Part shown: one piece after another, positions 1,386 to 14,856 of the stretch | How positions within the stretch are numbered: the first letter of the stretch is position 1 | How the letters are laid out: every line of letters starts with the position of its first letter | Virus record (IMG/VR): IMGVR_UViG_2778261223_000017 | Length of the DNA: 14,856 nucleotides | DNA from: a virus | Lineage: Duplodnaviria > Heunggongvirae > Uroviricota > Caudoviricetes | Strand: one strand, 5' to 3' | Program-made: the position numbers and the translations under genes | Notes under the pieces: model-generated | What the model saw: only the letters and a program-made list of their open reading frames with translations | What the model was told of the DNA's origin: nothing | The model's database searches: none

Positions 1386-1724
1386 TCAGGCTGCTTTTTT
1401 ATTCAGGTTACGCTGAGAAATAAATTTTTCAGCAGTATTGATACGACTTAACTCTTCCTGAACGCGCATATCATTTTCGACTTCCCACAGATCTACTGCG
1501 GTCTGAAGATTAATCCAAAAATCTACAGAAGTATCGAATGCTTTTGCCAGGCGATATGCCATATCCATCGTTAGCTTACGATTATTATTAACAAGAGCAC
1601 TTACGGTGTTACGATGAACATGAAGTATTTCTGCTAACTCGTTGATCTTCAGCTCTAACGGCTCCAGGTATTCGTACAGCAGGATATCACCTACGGTCGT
1701 CGGTTTTCTGGTTGCCTGTTTCAT
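1386..1724 (-). CDS. higA: HigA antitoxin (HTH, VapI/COG3093-like)
   Basis: 112-aa ORF directly downstream of the higB-like gene on the same strand. The motif TVGDILLYEYLEPLELKINELAEILHVHRNTVSALVNNNRKLTMDMAYRLAKAFDTSVDFWINLQ matches the HigA/VapI antidote HTH family by recall. Confidence 0.8.
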   Translation of the reverse strand: MKQATRKPTTVGDILLYEYLEPLELKINELAEILHVHRNTVSALVNNNRKLTMDMAYRLAKAFDTSVDFWINLQTAVDLWEVENDMRVQEELSRINTAEKFISQRNLNKKAA

Positions 1725-1794
1725 TTTTTGCCCTTACTAGCGTGCGTATTAAGTGGACTCTGGTCAGAACCCGGTCCGTAACCGGGTATCTGTT

Positions 1795-2097
1795 TTAGTA
1801 TTTGTGAGGGTCGAGATACAAGTCCTCGGCCTTTCCGTTAACCCACTTAAAAATTAACCTATATTGCTTATTCACCCTTACTGATGAATAGCCATTTAGC
1901 TTCCCTGACAGTTCCTCATACCGATTACCTGGTGGTGATCTTAAATCCTTACAGGTAGTTGCGGCATTGATAATGTCCAACTTCCGTGACAATGTCATAT
2001 GAATATCAGGAGGTATCTTTCTATGTGGTGTTGAAAATTCAAAAAAATCATCAAGCCACGCATCCCTGAAATCCTTTATGTTAATTTTTTTGGTCAT
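1795..2097 (-). CDS. higB: HigB toxin (plasmid maintenance killer protein, RelE/ParE superfamily)
   Basis: 100-aa ORF. KDFRDAW...LRSPPGNRYEELSGKLNGYSSVRVNKQYRLIFKWVNGKAEDLYLDPHKY matches the HigB/killer-protein family pattern by recall. Toxin-first order with higA downstream. Confidence 0.8.
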   Translation of the reverse strand: MTKKINIKDFRDAWLDDFFEFSTPHRKIPPDIHMTLSRKLDIINAATTCKDLRSPPGNRYEELSGKLNGYSSVRVNKQYRLIFKWVNGKAEDLYLDPHKY

Positions 2098-8024: not shown

Positions 8025-9686
8025 TTAACCTAACTTCGCCCAGGTATCACGCAGCCCAACGGTGCGGTTAAATACCGGTTTTTCCGCCGTAGAATGGCGG
8101 CTGTCGAGGCAGAAATAACCTTCACGCTCAAACTGGAATGCTTTACCCGCTACCGCGTCTTTCAGAGACGGTTCAGCAAAGCCCTGTTTGATCACCAGCG
8201 ATTCCGGGTTAATCACCGACAGGAAATCATCCGCAGCACCTGGGTTCGGCACGCTGAACAGACGGTCATACAAACGGATTTCAACCGGCAGCGCATGTGC
8301 CGCGCTCACCCAGTGAATAACACCTTTGACTTTACGACCATCTGCCGGATCTTTGCTTAAGGTATCGGCGTCATAAGTACAGAAGATGGTGGTGATATTA
8401 CCTTCGGCATCTTTCTCGACGCGTTCTGCCTTAATCACATAAGCATTACGCAGACGCACTTCTTTACCCAGCACCAGACGTTTGTACTGCTTGTTAGCTT
8501 CTTCGCGGAAATCGGCGCGATCAATCCAAATCTCACCGCTAAACGGCACCTGACGGCTCCCCATTTCCGGTTTGTTCGGATGGTTCGGCATGGTGACCAT
8601 TTCGCCTTCGCCCTGATAGTTTTCGATAACCAGTTTCACCGGATCGATAACCGCCATTGCGCGCGGCGCATTTTCGTTGAGATCTTCACGGATGCAGGAT
8701 TCCAGCGACGCCATCTCAATGGTGTTGTCCTGCTTGGTCACGCCGATGCGTTTGCAGAACTCACGAATAGAAGCAGCAGTGTAACCACGACGACGCAGAC
8801 CGGAAATGGTCGGCATACGCGGGTCATCCCAGCCTTCAACGTGCTTGTCGGTCACCAGCAGGTTCAGCTTACGCTTGGACATCACAGTGTATTCCAGATT
8901 CAGGCGCGAGAATTCGTACTGGCGCGGGTGAACAGGAATGGTGATGTTGTCCAGTACCCAGTCATACAGACGACGGTTGTCCTGGAACTCAAGCGTACAC
9001 AGAGAGTGCGTAATACCTTCCAGCGCATCGCTGATGCAGTGGGTGAAGTCGTACATCGGGTAGATGCACCACTTGTTGCCAGTCTGGTGGTGTTCAGCAA
9101 ACTTAATGCGGTACAGCACCGGGTCGCGCATCACGATAAACGGCGAAGCCATATCGATTTTCGCACGCAGGCAGGCTTTACCTTCTTCAAAACCACCGGC
9201 ACGCATTTTTTCGAACAGCGCCAGGTTCTCTTCAACGCTGCGATCGCGGTACGGGCTATTTTTACCCGGCTGCGTCAGGGTGCCGCGGTATTCGCGGATC
9301 TGTTCCGGCGTCAGTTCGTCAACATACGCCAGGCCTTTGTTGATCAGTTCAACAGCATAGGCATGGAGTTTGTCAAAATAATCGGAGGAGTAACGGATGT
9401 TGCCAGACCAGTGAAAACCTAACCATTCAACGTCGTTTTTAATCGACTCGACGTACTCGATATCTTCTTTTACCGGGTTAGTGTCGTCGAAACGCAGGTT
9501 GCACTGGCCTTTATAGTCCTGGGCGATCCCGAAGTTCAGGCAGATAGATTTCGCATGGCCAATATGCAGATAGCCATTCGGCTCCGGCGGGAAACGGGTG
9601 TGTACTGTGGTGTGCTTACCACTGGCCAGATCTTCATCGATGATCTGACGAATAAAGTTAGTCGGGCGGGCTTCTGCCTCACTCAT
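8025..9686 (-). CDS. glnS: Glutaminyl-tRNA synthetase
   Basis: 553-aa ORF. N-terminus [47 protein letters not shown] (class I HIGH motif) and a VMSKR-type KMSKS motif; near-identical to E. coli GlnS as recalled. Confidence 0.97.
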
Positions 9687-11514: not shown

Positions 11515-12471
11515 TTAACCGATTGCTTTCAGGCCATGAACAAGAGCAAGTTGCGGGTCATCCGCCACGAAGAAACGGTCATCACGAATATTAACTTGCT
11601 CGCGAATTGCATCTGCCACCAGCGGTGCGCCACCACCGATCACCATGACATGCGTATATCCTTTAAAGTCGCCAATCACATCAAGAACGCGGGTACGCAG
11701 ACGGTCAATGCTTGCGGCAATGGCCTTTTTCACATCACCAATCGCTAATGGGTCATTGATATTGTCGTTCAGATAATCTTCATCGTGGCGGTTAATAATG
11801 AGCTGATCAACATTGTAATTTGACGTTTCGGTATTGGCCCTTGCAAGTGCTTGCCTTACTTCCCTGGTGACCAGTGATACACCAAGATTCGAATCGCCAA
11901 AAACACGGGAAACTGCCGTCATTTGTCCAGCGACCATTGAAACATCAAGGGTAGTTCCACCCAAATCGACGATAAGAACAGAGTGGGCAGGGTTCAGATT
12001 GTCGCACAGGCTAATTCCCGCCGGGATAGACTCCGGGCGTACCGTAACTTTCTTAATAGTGAATACATTGCCTTTATTCAGCGTGACGGGGCGCATAAGA
12101 CTGGCTTTCTTGCGCTCGATGTTATCGAGATTGTATTGCGCGTCGTCGTCGTAAAACTCTGCCAGAGGCAGCGTGACCACAATTTCTACTTCCTGCGGCT
12201 CAATACCGCTTGTCAGCAGGGCATGGTGAACAGCCAGGACGTTAAGCGGGCTGTATTGCCATTCCACATTATTCGTCGGCAGAACATCTGGCGATATCAA
12301 GTCGTATGAATACTTTTCGTCGTCAATGACATAGTTAAACGGCTTGCCCGCACCAAATGTTGCTGACCATCCGCGCTTAAAGCTGTTAGGGCTGATGTGA
12401 GTGCGAGTTTCCCCGTCGTGCTCCCACAGCATTTTGATATTGGTTGAACCATCATCGATAAAAATGCGCAT
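11515..12471 (-). CDS. parM: ParM/StbA actin-like partition ATPase
   Basis: MRIFIDDGSTNIKM..., HISPNSFKRGW, AVHHALLTSG, NIERKKA, ESIPAG, LIVDLGGTTLD, GDSNLGVSLVT and GYTHVMVIGGGA parallel R1 ParM motif by motif. Start at ATG 12471 (GGAG upstream); the track start 12495 is 8 codons longer. Confidence 0.9.
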   Translation of the reverse strand: MRIFIDDGSTNIKMLWEHDGETRTHISPNSFKRGWSATFGAGKPFNYVIDDEKYSYDLISPDVLPTNNVEWQYSPLNVLAVHHALLTSGIEPQEVEIVVTLPLAEFYDDDAQYNLDNIERKKASLMRPVTLNKGNVFTIKKVTVRPESIPAGISLCDNLNPAHSVLIVDLGGTTLDVSMVAGQMTAVSRVFGDSNLGVSLVTREVRQALARANTETSNYNVDQLIINRHDEDYLNDNINDPLAIGDVKKAIAASIDRLRTRVLDVIGDFKGYTHVMVIGGGAPLVADAIREQVNIRDDRFFVADDPQLALVHGLKAIG

Positions 12472-12495
12472 CTTCTTGCTCCACTTCTGAGACAC

Positions 12496-12660
12496 ATTTG
12501 AGAATCAAAATGTAATTTTAAAAGAGAAGCCCCCAAAAATCCACACCAAACGAGATAAAAAAGGGCGCTTGTTGAGTTTATTTTGAGAATATCTTAATCA
12601 CCCACCGAATGATGGTCTGATAGTGAGATTTATTTGAGAGCGAATTGAGAATACAAAAAT
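12496..12660. repeat. Candidate parC-like centromere: repeated TTGAGA(A/G)-containing elements upstream of parM
   Basis: TTGAGAAT at about 12499 and 12582, TTGAGAG at about 12634, TTGAGAAT at about 12649; two longer related copies gagtttattttgagaat and gagatttatttgagagc. Seen directly; the role is inferred from position upstream of parMR. Confidence 0.4.
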
Positions 12661-12737
12661 ATTCCGAAATTTAACTCTCCGTTTGAATGACGAAATAACA
12701 AAGTGATGACAATAGAAGGATAACCAGGAGGTGAAGA

Positions 12738-13022
12738 ATGAGCGCAATAGCCACCAGCGACACCCTTTGTTCTGGTCACGGAGGATTTCCGCCGCGACTG
12801 GTAGCTGAAACCGTTCCCTGGTTCACCGTTAACGGTAAGCCAGTTGTTGTAGATGGTGCCATGTTTCCCAGTCACACTGACGGTAACAGTGCACATCCAG
12901 GGGCAGCTGTATCGACGCGAGCATGGTTTTCGATAGGTGGAAAGGGAGTTGTCTGTGTAGGCGATCTGCTTTCTTGTGGTTCTGTTATCGCCAACGGCGA
13001 GGATATTTTTCAGGTTGCATAA
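12738..13022 (+). CDS. PAAR-like domain protein (spike-tip protein)
   Basis: 94-aa ORF with strong AGGAGGTG Shine-Dalgarno. Repeated motif pattern FTVNGKPVVVDGAMF and SIGGKGVVCVGDLLSCGSVIANG with conserved Cys/His/Gly positions typical of PAAR proteins. Confidence 0.7.
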   Translation: MSAIATSDTLCSGHGGFPPRLVAETVPWFTVNGKPVVVDGAMFPSHTDGNSAHPGAAVSTRAWFSIGGKGVVCVGDLLSCGSVIANGEDIFQVA

Positions 13023-13828
13023 TGCTTGATTCAATAGGTGAAGTTAAAGCCTTCAAAATTCTGTCAGATGCCGGTATCTCTACACCAGAATCTATAACCA
13101 TAAGCCGAGCAGCTTCTGTAAAAGCCTCATCGCTCGCCAGCGCCATACAGGGAATAGTTCACGCCGATAAAACCTATCCTGATTCTGTTTCGGCCTGGAC
13201 TACTCAATTGCTTGGCTTTTCTGAACAGCTCAATGAGGCCAGCAAAGCGTCTTCATTACTGGCTGATTCTCTTTCCCCATACACCAAGCCATCAGAGCTG
13301 TTACAGATGAAGATTGGCTGGGAATGCTACGCAAAAGGTAACGAGCTGACCCCCATACCTGCTTTCGCCCTTGTTGAGGGAATGGGGAATGTTTCCATTC
13401 CGCAATCTCTAACGGACGCATTGACGGCGCTAAAACTTGATGCTCTGAAAACCGCCATGAACGCCATTAACGCAAAAATTGAAGCTGCCGGAAGTGCTGG
13501 TGGTGGTGATAGCAATGGTGGACAGGGTGGTGCTGGGGGCGCTCAGGCTCCAGTCATTACTCAGGATGAAATTGATGCTTTACGGGAAGCAGTGACAGCC
13601 GCCGAAGCTTTACTCTCCGAAATTAACTCAGCAAGTGAGAGTGTCGTAGCCCTTACAGGTCGCATTAAAACGTCAACCACTCAGGCAACCAAAGGTTTAG
13701 AGAACGCTGTCGCCATCACGTTAACTGGCTCTCTACTGGATGATGCAGTAATGAGTCCGGCAATCAGTTTAATCATGCCACAAGGCGTTATCGATGCGCT
13801 CCAAAAGAACACCAAAAAGGAACCATAG
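13022..13828 (+). CDS. Hypothetical protein coupled to the PAAR gene; Ala/Ser/Thr/Leu-rich with an internal Gly-rich linker
   Basis: Start ATG overlaps the PAAR stop (TAATG at 13020-13024). Predicted helical, no TM segment, linker AGSAGGGDSNGGQGGAGGAQAP. No family recognised. Confidence 0.6.
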   Translation: MLDSIGEVKAFKILSDAGISTPESITISRAASVKASSLASAIQGIVHADKTYPDSVSAWTTQLLGFSEQLNEASKASSLLADSLSPYTKPSELLQMKIGWECYAKGNELTPIPAFALVEGMGNVSIPQSLTDALTALKLDALKTAMNAINAKIEAAGSAGGGDSNGGQGGAGGAQAPVITQDEIDALREAVTAAEALLSEINSASESVVALTGRIKTSTTQATKGLENAVAITLTGSLLDDAVMSPAISLIMPQGVIDALQKNTKKEP

Positions 13829-13883
13829 CAACACCACTTAGGCACACAAAAGGATGTAATTTGGTACATGTTTAACACCGAAA

Positions 13884-14357
13884 ATGAACCTGAAGAGGAT
13901 GGTTTTGAAAAAGATAATTTTGATTGTAATTGCGCTTTTAGCCATTTCTGGAATTTACCGAACAACGACGGCAGTTATCGAACACATCAGGTATGTCCGA
14001 TCGCTTGAAGACTCAAAATCACAACTGGAAAGCACGAACAACACGCTTTCTACCGCATTACAGTTAAGTGAGAACGCTCGCTCAGCCATGCTGACCGAAA
14101 ACGAAAGAATTAAAGCACTGGAAAAGGAGTACCAGCGCAAAACAGCAGAACTGAATGCCAACCTAATCAAACAACGAGAGGAAAGCCAGAATGAAATCAC
14201 TCGCCTTGAAAATGCGTTACGCCGTGCTGGGATTAACGATGTGCGTGTGCCTGATGACGTTATCAGGATGCAGCGGGAACGGGCAAAAGCCATCAACCAG
14301 CGTGCCAGTGAAAATTACCGTAGAAGCCACCAGCAAGCCGCAGGCAAATCTGATTGA
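13884..14357 (+). CDS. Rz-like inner-membrane spanin (i-spanin): N-terminal TM anchor plus periplasmic coiled coil
   Basis: N-terminal hydrophobic segment KKIILIVIALLAISGIY followed by a charged heptad-rich region. NALRRAGINDVRV resembles the Rz C-terminal region of lambda by recall. An overlapping +1-frame lipoprotein gene is embedded at its 3' end. Confidence 0.6.
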   Translation: MNLKRMVLKKIILIVIALLAISGIYRTTTAVIEHIRYVRSLEDSKSQLESTNNTLSTALQLSENARSAMLTENERIKALEKEYQRKTAELNANLIKQREESQNEITRLENALRRAGINDVRVPDDVIRMQRERAKAINQRASENYRRSHQQAAGKSD

Positions 14358-14523
14358 TTACTCCCCTTGTTTAGTGCCAGAAGACACGCCAGTGCTGTTA
14401 AACAAGTATCCGACATACGCTGAACAGTTATTCAGCACGATCGACGAATGCAACCAACGAAACGCACTGAATAACCAAAGAAACAGGGAGATTTGGGAAG
14501 GGAAGGGGGATCAAGGCTCCTGA
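14191..14523 (+). CDS. Rz1-like outer-membrane lipoprotein spanin (o-spanin), overlapping the i-spanin gene in another frame
   Basis: GAGGAAAG Shine-Dalgarno before the ATG at 14191. Signal peptide with lipobox LSGC (MKSLALKMRYAVLGLTMCVCLMTLSGC), Pro-containing mature region, and two further Cys residues. The gene begins inside the Rz-like gene and extends past it, the overlapped spanin architecture. Confidence 0.55.
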   Translation: MKSLALKMRYAVLGLTMCVCLMTLSGCSGNGQKPSTSVPVKITVEATSKPQANLIDYSPCLVPEDTPVLLNKYPTYAEQLFSTIDECNQRNALNNQRNREIWEGKGDQGS

Positions 14524-14779
14524 AGCCAGATGTCCTGGCTGTCAGCTTCTTCGAAACCGTGACAGACGTTAAAGTCACTCAAACGATACTGACGCTGACG
14601 GCCCCTATTTCGCTCATGCCAATGCATATATCCACCAGCAAATGCCAGCGGACAATCGCTATAGTCTATGTAACCAATACCATTCCCCAAACGTGCTTCG
14701 CGCGCACCAGCTTTCCAGGACAGTAGAAAAGAGTCACGATCCGCCAGCATAACAACAAAATCGTCCGGATCTCCGATAC

Positions 14780-14856
14780 TGAACCGCCCCGGAAATCCTG
14801 GAGACTAAACTCCCTGAGAAAGAGGTAAACAGGATGACTAAAAATACTCGTTTTTC
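14780..14856 (+). mobile_element. Left end of an IS3-family insertion sequence (terminal inverted repeat TGAACCGCCCCGG...) including the start of the transposase orfA
   Basis: Terminal repeat is inverted relative to 41-77. An ATG at 14834 preceded by GAGG opens a frame reading MTKNTRF..., which matches the N-terminus of an IS3-family OrfA as I recall it. Truncated by the window end. Confidence 0.65.
14834..14856 (+). CDS. IS3-family transposase OrfA, N-terminal fragment (partial, runs off window)
   Basis: ATG with Shine-Dalgarno inside the IS left end; only 7 codons visible. Confidence 0.5.

Follow-up and report, generated by a model that had tools for sequence, protein, structure and literature searches.

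The two overlapped genes described here most probably encode a spanin (we put the probability at about 0.9), namely the two-component overlapped i-spanin/o-spanin pair of a plasmid prophage that is D6-like and related to P1; its position corresponds by homology to that of P1 ppfA/mlp. The genes lie in a 14,856-nt stretch of phage DNA, called the window below; for brevity, the two genes and their products are termed i-spanin and o-spanin throughout. Both plus-strand ORFs reported in the first-pass annotation were recovered at the same coordinates in the ORF listing (Table 1), and its description of a membrane-anchored protein, with a +1-frame lipoprotein ORF starting inside the 3' end of its gene, agreed with the reading frames, the transmembrane domain (TMD) and the LSGC lipobox that we found.

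Over bases 12500-14779, the window was 99.9% identical to Escherichia phage D6 and 100% identical to ~90-kb Salmonella and E. coli plasmids, for example pYU39_89, a Salmonella plasmid with tail sheath, RepB and ParM genes. The annotations of D6 and pYU39_89 list, on the virion side, tail sheath, tube, baseplate, capsid and terminase genes, and, for plasmid maintenance, RepB/RepA, StbA/StbB and toxin-antitoxin pairs, together with a Cre/lox-like recombinase, the C1 repressor, Lpa (orf4 of D6) and glnS. These matches assign the source of the window to a D6-like, P1-related myovirus plasmid prophage. Phage D6, with a genome of 91 kb, is viable and has been propagated on E. coli C600.

Table 1. 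Features of the spanin locus and its surroundings, in window coordinates; gene names follow the proposed reading.
Feature	Positions	Strand	Basis or remark
Late-promoter-like motif, AAATAACA-N7-GACAAT	12693-12713	+	25 nt upstream of the PAAR gene
PAAR-domain protein, 94 aa, P1 UpfC homologue	12738-13022	+	Pfam, identity to P1, PDB match
268-aa all-helical protein, P1 UpfB homologue	13022-13828	+	PHROG, P1/P7 identity, D6 annotation, AlphaFold2
i-spanin gene (ORF, 157 aa)	13884-14357	+	TMD, PHROG matches, AlphaFold2, start conservation, dN/dS
o-spanin Shine-Dalgarno sequence, GAGGAAAG	14178-14185	+	Inside the i-spanin coding sequence; conserved spacing
o-spanin gene (110-aa precursor)	14191-14523	+	Lipobox, P1 Mlp homology, phrog_456, conservation, dN/dS
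o-spanin signal peptide	14191-14268	+	Predicted
o-spanin lipidated Cys codon (Cys27)	14269-14271	+	Predicted from the lipobox
D6 orf53 homologue, 3' part, convergent	14511-14779	-	phrog_8101; truncated by the IS; outside the spanin system
IS3-family IS1203/IS629 element, left end (77 bases)	14780-14856	+	100% match

The overlapped gene pair and its two products

The best 19-residue Kyte-Doolittle window of the i-spanin scored 2.48 and covered residues 6-24. This was the sole strongly hydrophobic stretch of the protein; Lys/Arg residues precede it, and a 131-residue domain with 33% charged residues follows it. The hydropathy profile and an AlphaFold2 model together gave the layout of an i-spanin, with a single N-terminal TMD in the N-in/C-out orientation and a mostly alpha-helical periplasmic domain. 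In the model, which was built with nine homologues and reached a pLDDT of 87, one helix (residues 2-114) runs unbroken from the TMD, followed by a linker at residues 115-123 (AGINDVRVP) and a second helix at residues 124-152. The protein had initially been called a TM-anchored coiled coil. The TMD and the helices of that description were recovered, but the heptad pattern was not significant: in a crude test of hydrophobicity at the a/d positions, 119 of 2000 shuffles reached the value of the long helix. We describe the protein as helical and regard coiled-coil pairing as plausible. The i-spanin contains no Cys, and a PDB sequence search with it returned low-complexity or coiled-coil noise only.

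An alignment of the start region revealed that the ATG at 13884 is not conserved among the relatives. The conserved start is either the ATG at 13899 or the TTG/GTG codon at 13905 (TTG in the window), and an AAGAGG Shine-Dalgarno (SD) sequence precedes it. Judged from this alignment, translation likely begins at one of these two codons, giving a protein of 152 or 150 aa, respectively. The i-spanin matched two PHROG families annotated as 'Rz-like spanin' (phrog_214, E 7.6e-16; phrog_89, E 1.8e-7), and its dN/dS against close relatives was 0.21-0.24. Conservation peaked where the second helix begins, in PDDVIRMQRERAKAIN, and this same stretch, read in the other frame, codes for the signal peptide and lipobox of the o-spanin.

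The o-spanin ORF is in the +1 frame relative to the i-spanin, with an offset of 307 nt, and the two share the 167 nt from 14191 to 14357. This is the 'overlapped' class of spanin gene arrangement, and it is kept in all of the relatives. The N-terminus of the o-spanin, MKSLALKMRYAVLGLTMCVCLMT-LSG-C-S, consists of a basic n-region, a hydrophobic core and the lipobox LSGC with Ser at +2, in other words, a signal peptidase II lipobox and Cys without the Asp at +2 that is associated with inner-membrane retention. The predicted mature lipoprotein has 84 residues, including 7 Pro and two Cys beyond the lipobox Cys. The o-spanin also matched an 'Rz-like spanin' family (phrog_456, E 1.2e-5). Matches to the curated spanin models stayed under their cut-offs, with 16 bits versus 25 for O_Spanin_T7 (Pfam) and 13 versus 27 for P2_Rz1 (NCBIfam), and the Pfam LysC spanin model was likewise below its curated cut-off. 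A six-frame scan of the window for lipoprotein signals found the o-spanin ORF alone, with an average of 0.075 candidates in simulated windows. The same scan of the whole D6 genome found the o-spanin ORF and one antisense TTG ORF, and by this measure the o-spanin ORF is the sole credible candidate with a lipoprotein signal in D6.

We compared nine D6-like loci. Four of them had i-spanins with 81-88% identity to that of the window, and two were at 43-46%; more distant loci, one from Citrobacter and two others, were reached via the UpfB homologue. The +1 ORF was kept in 9/9 loci, the distance from its ATG to the Cys of the lipobox, an invariant LSGC, was exactly 26 codons, and three motifs after the lipobox were conserved (Y.PCL(V/I)PE, YP.YT and (E/Q)CN.(R/Q)N). 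In all seven of the closest sequences, which are the window and the six relatives with the identities given above, the SD sequence listed in Table 1 (GAGGATAG in one relative, L006) stood at an equal distance upstream of the o-spanin ATG. Across the 54 o-spanin codons downstream of the overlap, dN/dS relative to the window was 0.05-0.16, with synonymous sites near saturation. For the i-spanin, pS was 0.15-0.19 inside the overlap versus 0.24-0.39 outside, and this lower synonymous difference is as expected under dual coding. Only one case of a frameshift or stop was found in the pair among the D6-like elements, in the i-spanin of the distant locus L019. Taken together, the selection on the o-spanin, the depressed synonymous rate in the overlap and the conserved start and SD indicate that the second frame is coding. 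By the six-frame scans, the overlapped gene pair is real and not a chance pattern.

The pair is poorly represented in existing annotations. In the D6 record, the i-spanin is orf55 ('hypothetical') and the o-spanin is orf54, which is annotated from an internal GTG as a 73-aa protein and therefore lacks the signal peptide; this annotated start is wrong. The o-spanin ORF was uncalled in the PGAP annotation that we checked, that of pYU39_89. In a collection of 5.8 billion proteins, the called o-spanin proteins formed 6 clusters versus 18 for the i-spanin, a difference that we attribute to the bias of gene callers against overlapped o-spanins (Kongari 2018). Judged from these cluster counts, most D6-like plasmids are probably without a called o-spanin gene.

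Neighbouring genes, operon and dispersed lysis genes

The PAAR protein encoded upstream scored 28.5 bits with the Pfam PAAR_motif model (cut-off 27) and was 57% identical to P1 UpfC. Its PDB matches were 9vyi_A, which is P1 UpfC (E 7e-35), and T4 gp5.4 (E 2e-4), and the corresponding D6 gene, orf57, is annotated 'similar to P1 upfC'. A cryo-EM study of P1 (2026) found the tip of the gp5 spike to be a UpfC monomer (PMC12810830). By homology, the PAAR gene product is assigned as a phage tail-spike tip and thus a part of the virion. With the NCBIfam T6SS_PAAR_dom model for type VI secretion system (T6SS) proteins, it reached 34 bits, far short of the cut-off of 124, and the neighbours of its gene are phage virion and plasmid-maintenance genes.

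The 268-aa protein encoded between the PAAR gene and the pair matched phrog_1559 (E 1e-110) and was 27% identical to P1/P7 UpfB across 98% of its length; the annotation of its D6 counterpart, orf56, reads 'similar to P1 upfB'. In P1, UpfB forms a trimeric 'tripod' anchored on the spike tip (PMC12810830). An AlphaFold2 model built with 22 homologues (pLDDT 87, pTM 0.80) was all-helical with a Gly-rich disordered linker. Cryptic muralytic activity had been suggested for this protein, an idea that loses its footing with the homology to the UpfB tripod and with the domain and fold searches. Pfam, NCBIfam and a PDB sequence search yielded no match and hence no muralytic domain, the last of these returning low-complexity or coiled-coil noise only. 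A Foldseek comparison of the model with the PDB gave 0 matches at E<=1e-3, the hits being generic helical bundles with a TM score of ~0.2, and no lysozyme or transglycosylase fold.

A k-mer count of words shared upstream of the D6 late genes uncovered a late-promoter-like motif, AAATMACA-N8-A-N3-T, which can be read as AAAT(C/A)ACA, 7 nt and a -10-like nAnnnT. The window contains two copies (at 2198 and 12693; 0.14 expected), both on the plus strand and directly upstream of plus-strand virion operons. D6 contains 11 copies versus 0.6 expected, each immediately preceding an operon of structural or lysis genes, and these operons start with darB, orf16, prt, ddrB, lydA, R, pmgB/sit, gene 23, upfC, gene 7 and mat. 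The holin, hydrolase and spanin operons of D6 thus all have the motif. Its copy ahead of the PAAR gene is a candidate promoter for the four-gene operon, and its distribution suggests that the PAAR-UpfB-spanin operon is expressed late, under regulation shared with the operons of the holin and the hydrolase. No shared element emerged when the regions upstream of the D6 late genes were searched for inverted repeats resembling the P1 Lpa box, and scans of 12400-14856 for sigma-70 promoters and intrinsic terminators returned fewer sites than shuffled sequences and nothing informative. The P1 late box, ACAAGTGAyTT, differs from the D6 motif and was not found upstream of P1 upfC, so that the late regulation of the D6-like operon is not transferable from P1.

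No holin or endolysin gene was found within the window, and the first-pass annotation was right that none lies near the pair. D6, a phage of a Gram-negative host, encodes LydA/LydB homologues (holin/antiholin) at ~31 kb (Pfam LydB E 1e-24) and, at ~19 kb, orf16, a CHAP-domain hydrolase (31 bits versus a cut-off of 26). The missing holin and endolysin near the pair correspond to the dispersed lysis layout of the P1 type.

Downstream of the pair, the IS that had been noted at the end of the locus was confirmed as the left end of an IS1203/IS629 element, which matched thousands of copies annotated as 'IS3-like element IS1203 family transposase'. The terminal TGAACCGCCCCGG of the IS begins at 14780, and the homology of the window to D6 stops at the preceding base, 14779. 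The IS lies 256 nt beyond the o-spanin stop; it cuts the convergent gene and spares the pair. The truncated gene covers positions 74-152 of the 152 positions of phrog_8101, and an intact 152-aa gene is present in D6 and pYU39_89. The exact IS junction was not found in PLSDB or the complete E. coli genomes searched, and the insertion is private to this copy and incidental.

The order of the four genes is that of P1. P1 (MH422554) and Cronobacter phage JK004 both have upfC-upfB-ppfA-mlp-upfA, where PpfA has 140 aa and a TMD at its N-terminus, and mlp lies in the +1 frame over the 3' end of ppfA, with the lipobox LTLSGC in P1 and LTLSAC in JK004. The o-spanin was 31% identical to P1 Mlp (E 6e-9). 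The similarity of the i-spanin to P1 PpfA was weak (BLASTP E 0.11; hhalign aligned only the C-terminal 32 columns, with 54% probability and E 1.3e-4), and for this reason the link to P1 rested on the o-spanin and on synteny. The P1 pair is named Rz/Rz1 in one P1 record, and P1 gp064 is listed as an 'overlapped' i-spanin in the supplement of a spanin census (Kongari 2018). Bednarek et al. (PMC9025707) also described the P1 spanin genes as partly overlapping and as belonging to an operon that is not linked with lyz and lydAB, their function being unverified. With the topology of both proteins, the PHROG matches, the homology to P1 Mlp and the conservation of the overlapped frame, the Rz/Rz1-type spanin architecture that had been proposed for the pair is supported.

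Proposed function and alternative explanations

We propose the following course of action for the pair. The i-spanin (13899/13905-14357) would be held in the inner membrane by its one N-terminal helix and would extend a mostly helical domain of ~130 residues into the periplasm. The primary o-spanin product would be a lipoprotein precursor that undergoes cleavage and lipidation at Cys27 and, having Ser at +2, is directed to the outer membrane. On the model of lambda Rz/Rz1, both subunits would bind each other via their periplasmic ends and thereby span the periplasm, and the complex would be restrained by the peptidoglycan mesh. The LydA-homologue holin and the CHAP-domain orf16 hydrolase would destroy the wall before the spanins act, and after the loss of the wall the spanins would fuse the inner with the outer membrane, or disrupt the two, leading to virion release. 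Transcription of the pair would be late, as the last two genes of the four-gene operon headed by the UpfC/PAAR gene and then the UpfB gene.

The first-pass annotation had offered two other explanations, neither of which fared well. According to one, the pair together with the PAAR and 268-aa proteins would form a membrane-fusion or release device for a PAAR-associated cargo; such a function would be type VI-like or injection-associated. The four genes are indeed contiguous and co-oriented with tiny gaps, their order persists throughout the D6/P1 lineage, and no signal for an internal promoter or terminator is conspicuous among them; however, P1-type genomes usually co-transcribe unrelated late functions. 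The PAAR protein is orthologous to P1 UpfC, which is the baseplate spike tip resolved by cryo-EM (PDB 9vyi), and its T6SS PAAR score is below the cut-off, as described above. PpfA and Mlp are not among the P1 virion-structure proteins listed (PMC12810830), and T6SS genes are absent from the annotations of the surrounding myovirus plasmid prophage, all of which makes such a device exceedingly improbable. It is also very unlikely that the pair is a decaying, non-functional remnant of a lysis cassette that has lost its holin and endolysin. The lack of these genes from the window and the nearby IS would fit such a remnant, but neither frame is disrupted, purifying selection acts on both in comparisons with relatives whose synonymous sites are saturated, and the start codon, SD and lipobox are invariant. 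Furthermore, the holin-less context is ancestral in P1, JK004 and all of the D6-like elements, the IS occurs in this copy alone and hits another gene, and D6 is viable with its holin and hydrolase genes located elsewhere. Since PAAR-UpfB-i-spanin-o-spanin is the normal gene order of the P1 family and the PAAR protein is part of the virion, we regard the pair as neither a remnant nor a release device.

Phage-encoded lipoproteins with roles in exclusion exist, and the pair might accordingly serve another envelope function, such as superinfection exclusion, receptor masking (of the T5 Llp or Cor type) or a plasmid-related modification. The scores of the curated spanin HMMs, which are below the cut-offs, would be compatible with this, as would the dispensability of the P1 pair for plaques. 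CRISPRi knock-down of P1 mlp and ppfA did not abolish plaques (PMC10695390), a result that is expected for spanins on plates and provides no positive support. Against another envelope function, the combination of a type II helical inner-membrane protein, an overlapped +1 outer-membrane lipoprotein and translational coupling signals is diagnostic of two-component spanins, and PHROG spanin families match both proteins. D6 is without another spanin candidate, although one is expected in a phage of Gram-negative bacteria that encodes a holin and a hydrolase, and the operon has a late-type motif, not a lysogenic-expression context. We consider a function of this other kind improbable.

The linkage of the spike-tip, tripod and spanin genes in one operon in every P1- and D6-like element examined raises the question of a functional connection beyond late co-expression, for which we see very little chance. 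If it existed, a common outer-membrane target may be acted on by the spike tip and tripod at entry and by the spanins at exit; alternatively, spanin subunits may additionally contribute to envelope penetration or to the control of superinfection.

The value of assigning the pair as a spanin is mainly one of annotation. The assignment completes the lysis gene set of widespread ~90-kb E. coli and Salmonella phage-plasmids, and it means that a PAAR gene on such plasmids should be read as a phage tail part, not as evidence of type VI secretion cargo. Knowledge of spanins is unchanged by the D6-like pair, and the finding is correct but ordinary: the pair is a poorly annotated further example of a spanin type already catalogued in P1.

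Comparison with P1, T4 and lambda

The PpfA/Mlp pair of P1 and P7 (gp064/gp063) occupies the same position as the D6-like pair, in the order upfC (PAAR)-upfB-i-spanin-o-spanin, and is alike in its +1 overlap and in the stop-to-stop length of the o-spanin ORF, which is 110 aa in both. The lipobox contexts of P1 Mlp and the D6-type o-spanin are near-identical, L(M/L)TLSGCSG, and the two lipoproteins have a periplasmic Cys and a P-E motif in common. P1 PpfA and the D6-type i-spanin end in the same C-terminal motif, (R/V)PxD..R(M/L)xRE, and both pairs are unlinked to the holin and endolysin. In contrast, the two i-spanins are barely alignable outside their last ~32 residues, and the D6-type protein is 10-17 residues longer than PpfA. 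A second conserved periplasmic Cys, in the DECN motif, is present in the D6-type o-spanin and absent from P1 Mlp. The surroundings also differ: the pair is followed by upfA and repA in P1 and by the convergent orf53/orf52 in D6, and the late-promoter boxes of the two phages are unlike.

The 94-aa PAAR protein resembles T4 gp5.4 and the PAAR spike-tip proteins of T6SSs in being a spike-sharpening tip. Unlike the T6SS PAAR proteins, the D6-like protein is a predicted phage virion protein and not a cargo adaptor, and it has no relation to spanin function beyond the common operon.

A sequence match of the D6-like pair to lambda Rz/Rz1 was not detectable at the Pfam level, and the two systems differ in several respects. 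The D6-like genes are overlapped, whereas the lambda Rz1 gene is fully embedded; the mature D6-type o-spanin has 84 aa with 7 Pro, whereas the mature periplasmic domain of lambda Rz1 has 40 aa with 10 Pro (Kongari 2018). Unlike its lambda counterpart, the D6-type i-spanin has no Cys, and the pair is not located downstream of a holin and an endolysin. The overall plan is nevertheless that of lambda. In lambda too, the inner-membrane subunit, Rz, has type II topology, and a linker interrupts its helical periplasmic domain, in the order TMD, helix, linker, helix (Kongari 2018); Rz1, likewise an outer-membrane lipoprotein, is read from the same DNA in the +1 frame.

Annotation and integrity of the spanin genes

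The i-spanin is labelled 'hypothetical protein' in the records of both Escherichia phage D6 (MF356679) and the D6-like plasmid pYU39_89, and the RefSeq/PGAP annotation of the latter (NZ_CP011430 35193-35347) is without the o-spanin. In the D6 GenBank record, the o-spanin is mis-annotated as a 73-aa product with an internal GTG start (orf54, 55088-55309), and the signal peptide is missing from orf54 as annotated. Only one of the nine relatives compared carried a broken copy: in L019, a distant relative represented by a JGI metagenome contig (Ga0557493_045740, 3768-4392), the i-spanin ORF ends after 97 aa, reflecting a nonsense change, a frameshift or an assembly error, and the o-spanin ORF located 3' of the shortened i-spanin is intact.

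Cargo genes, intergenic repeats and an IS insertion

At the end of the window, insertion of an IS3-family element cost the D6 orf53 homologue its first ~63 codons. The resulting IS/orf53 junction was absent from all PLSDB plasmids and all complete E. coli genomes in the collection.

Between the PAAR gene and the divergent stbA/parM gene, we found intergenic TGAGA words recurring at 11-nt spacing (TGAGAcacattTGAGA, TGAGAtttattTGAGAgcgaatTGAGA, TGAGtttattttGAGA), which are kept in three D6-like relatives (L006, L007 and L009). These repeats look like a parC-type centromere of the StbA/StbB (ParM/ParR-like) partition system.

The phage-plasmid also carries a full-length glutaminyl-tRNA synthetase gene (glnS, D6 orf62), cargo that is unusual among temperate phages. 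Elsewhere, a RelE/ParE-family toxin gene with a HigA-type antitoxin, adjoined by a second HTH gene (D6 orf70-72), is flanked by two tail-gene operons.

Coordinates of features in the window and in phage D6
Feature	Position	Strand	Remark
Toxin/antitoxin genes	1386-2097	-	window
Promoter-like motif	2198-2218; 12693-12713	+	window
glnS	8025-9686	-	window
TGAGA repeats	12488-12650		window
Gly-rich linker GSAGGGDSNGGQGGAGGAQAP	13496-13560		window; residues ~159-180 of 268-aa protein
Disrupted D6 orf53 homologue	14511-14779	-	window; phrog_8101, unknown function
IS1203/IS629 element	14780-14856		window; IS3 family
Promoter-like motif	19191, 19215, 25241, 27747, 31531, 38135, 45511, 54144, 56918, 67413, 72120		D6 MF356679

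Comparison with P1: tripod linker and a probable D6 late promoter

In the 268-aa UpfB-like tripod protein, a Gly-rich, low-confidence linker separates two helical parts, and the matching position in P1 UpfB is occupied by a Gly/Ser-rich stretch.

Phage D6 contains 11 copies of the promoter-like motif AAAT(C/A)ACA-N7-nAnnnT, compared with 0.6 expected by chance, and every copy (11/11) lies directly 5' of a structural or lysis operon. This motif is probably the D6 late promoter. The P1 late box that we found in this analysis, ACAAGTGAyTT followed by a -10 element, is unlike the D6 motif. The number of late promoters reported for P1 is likewise 11.
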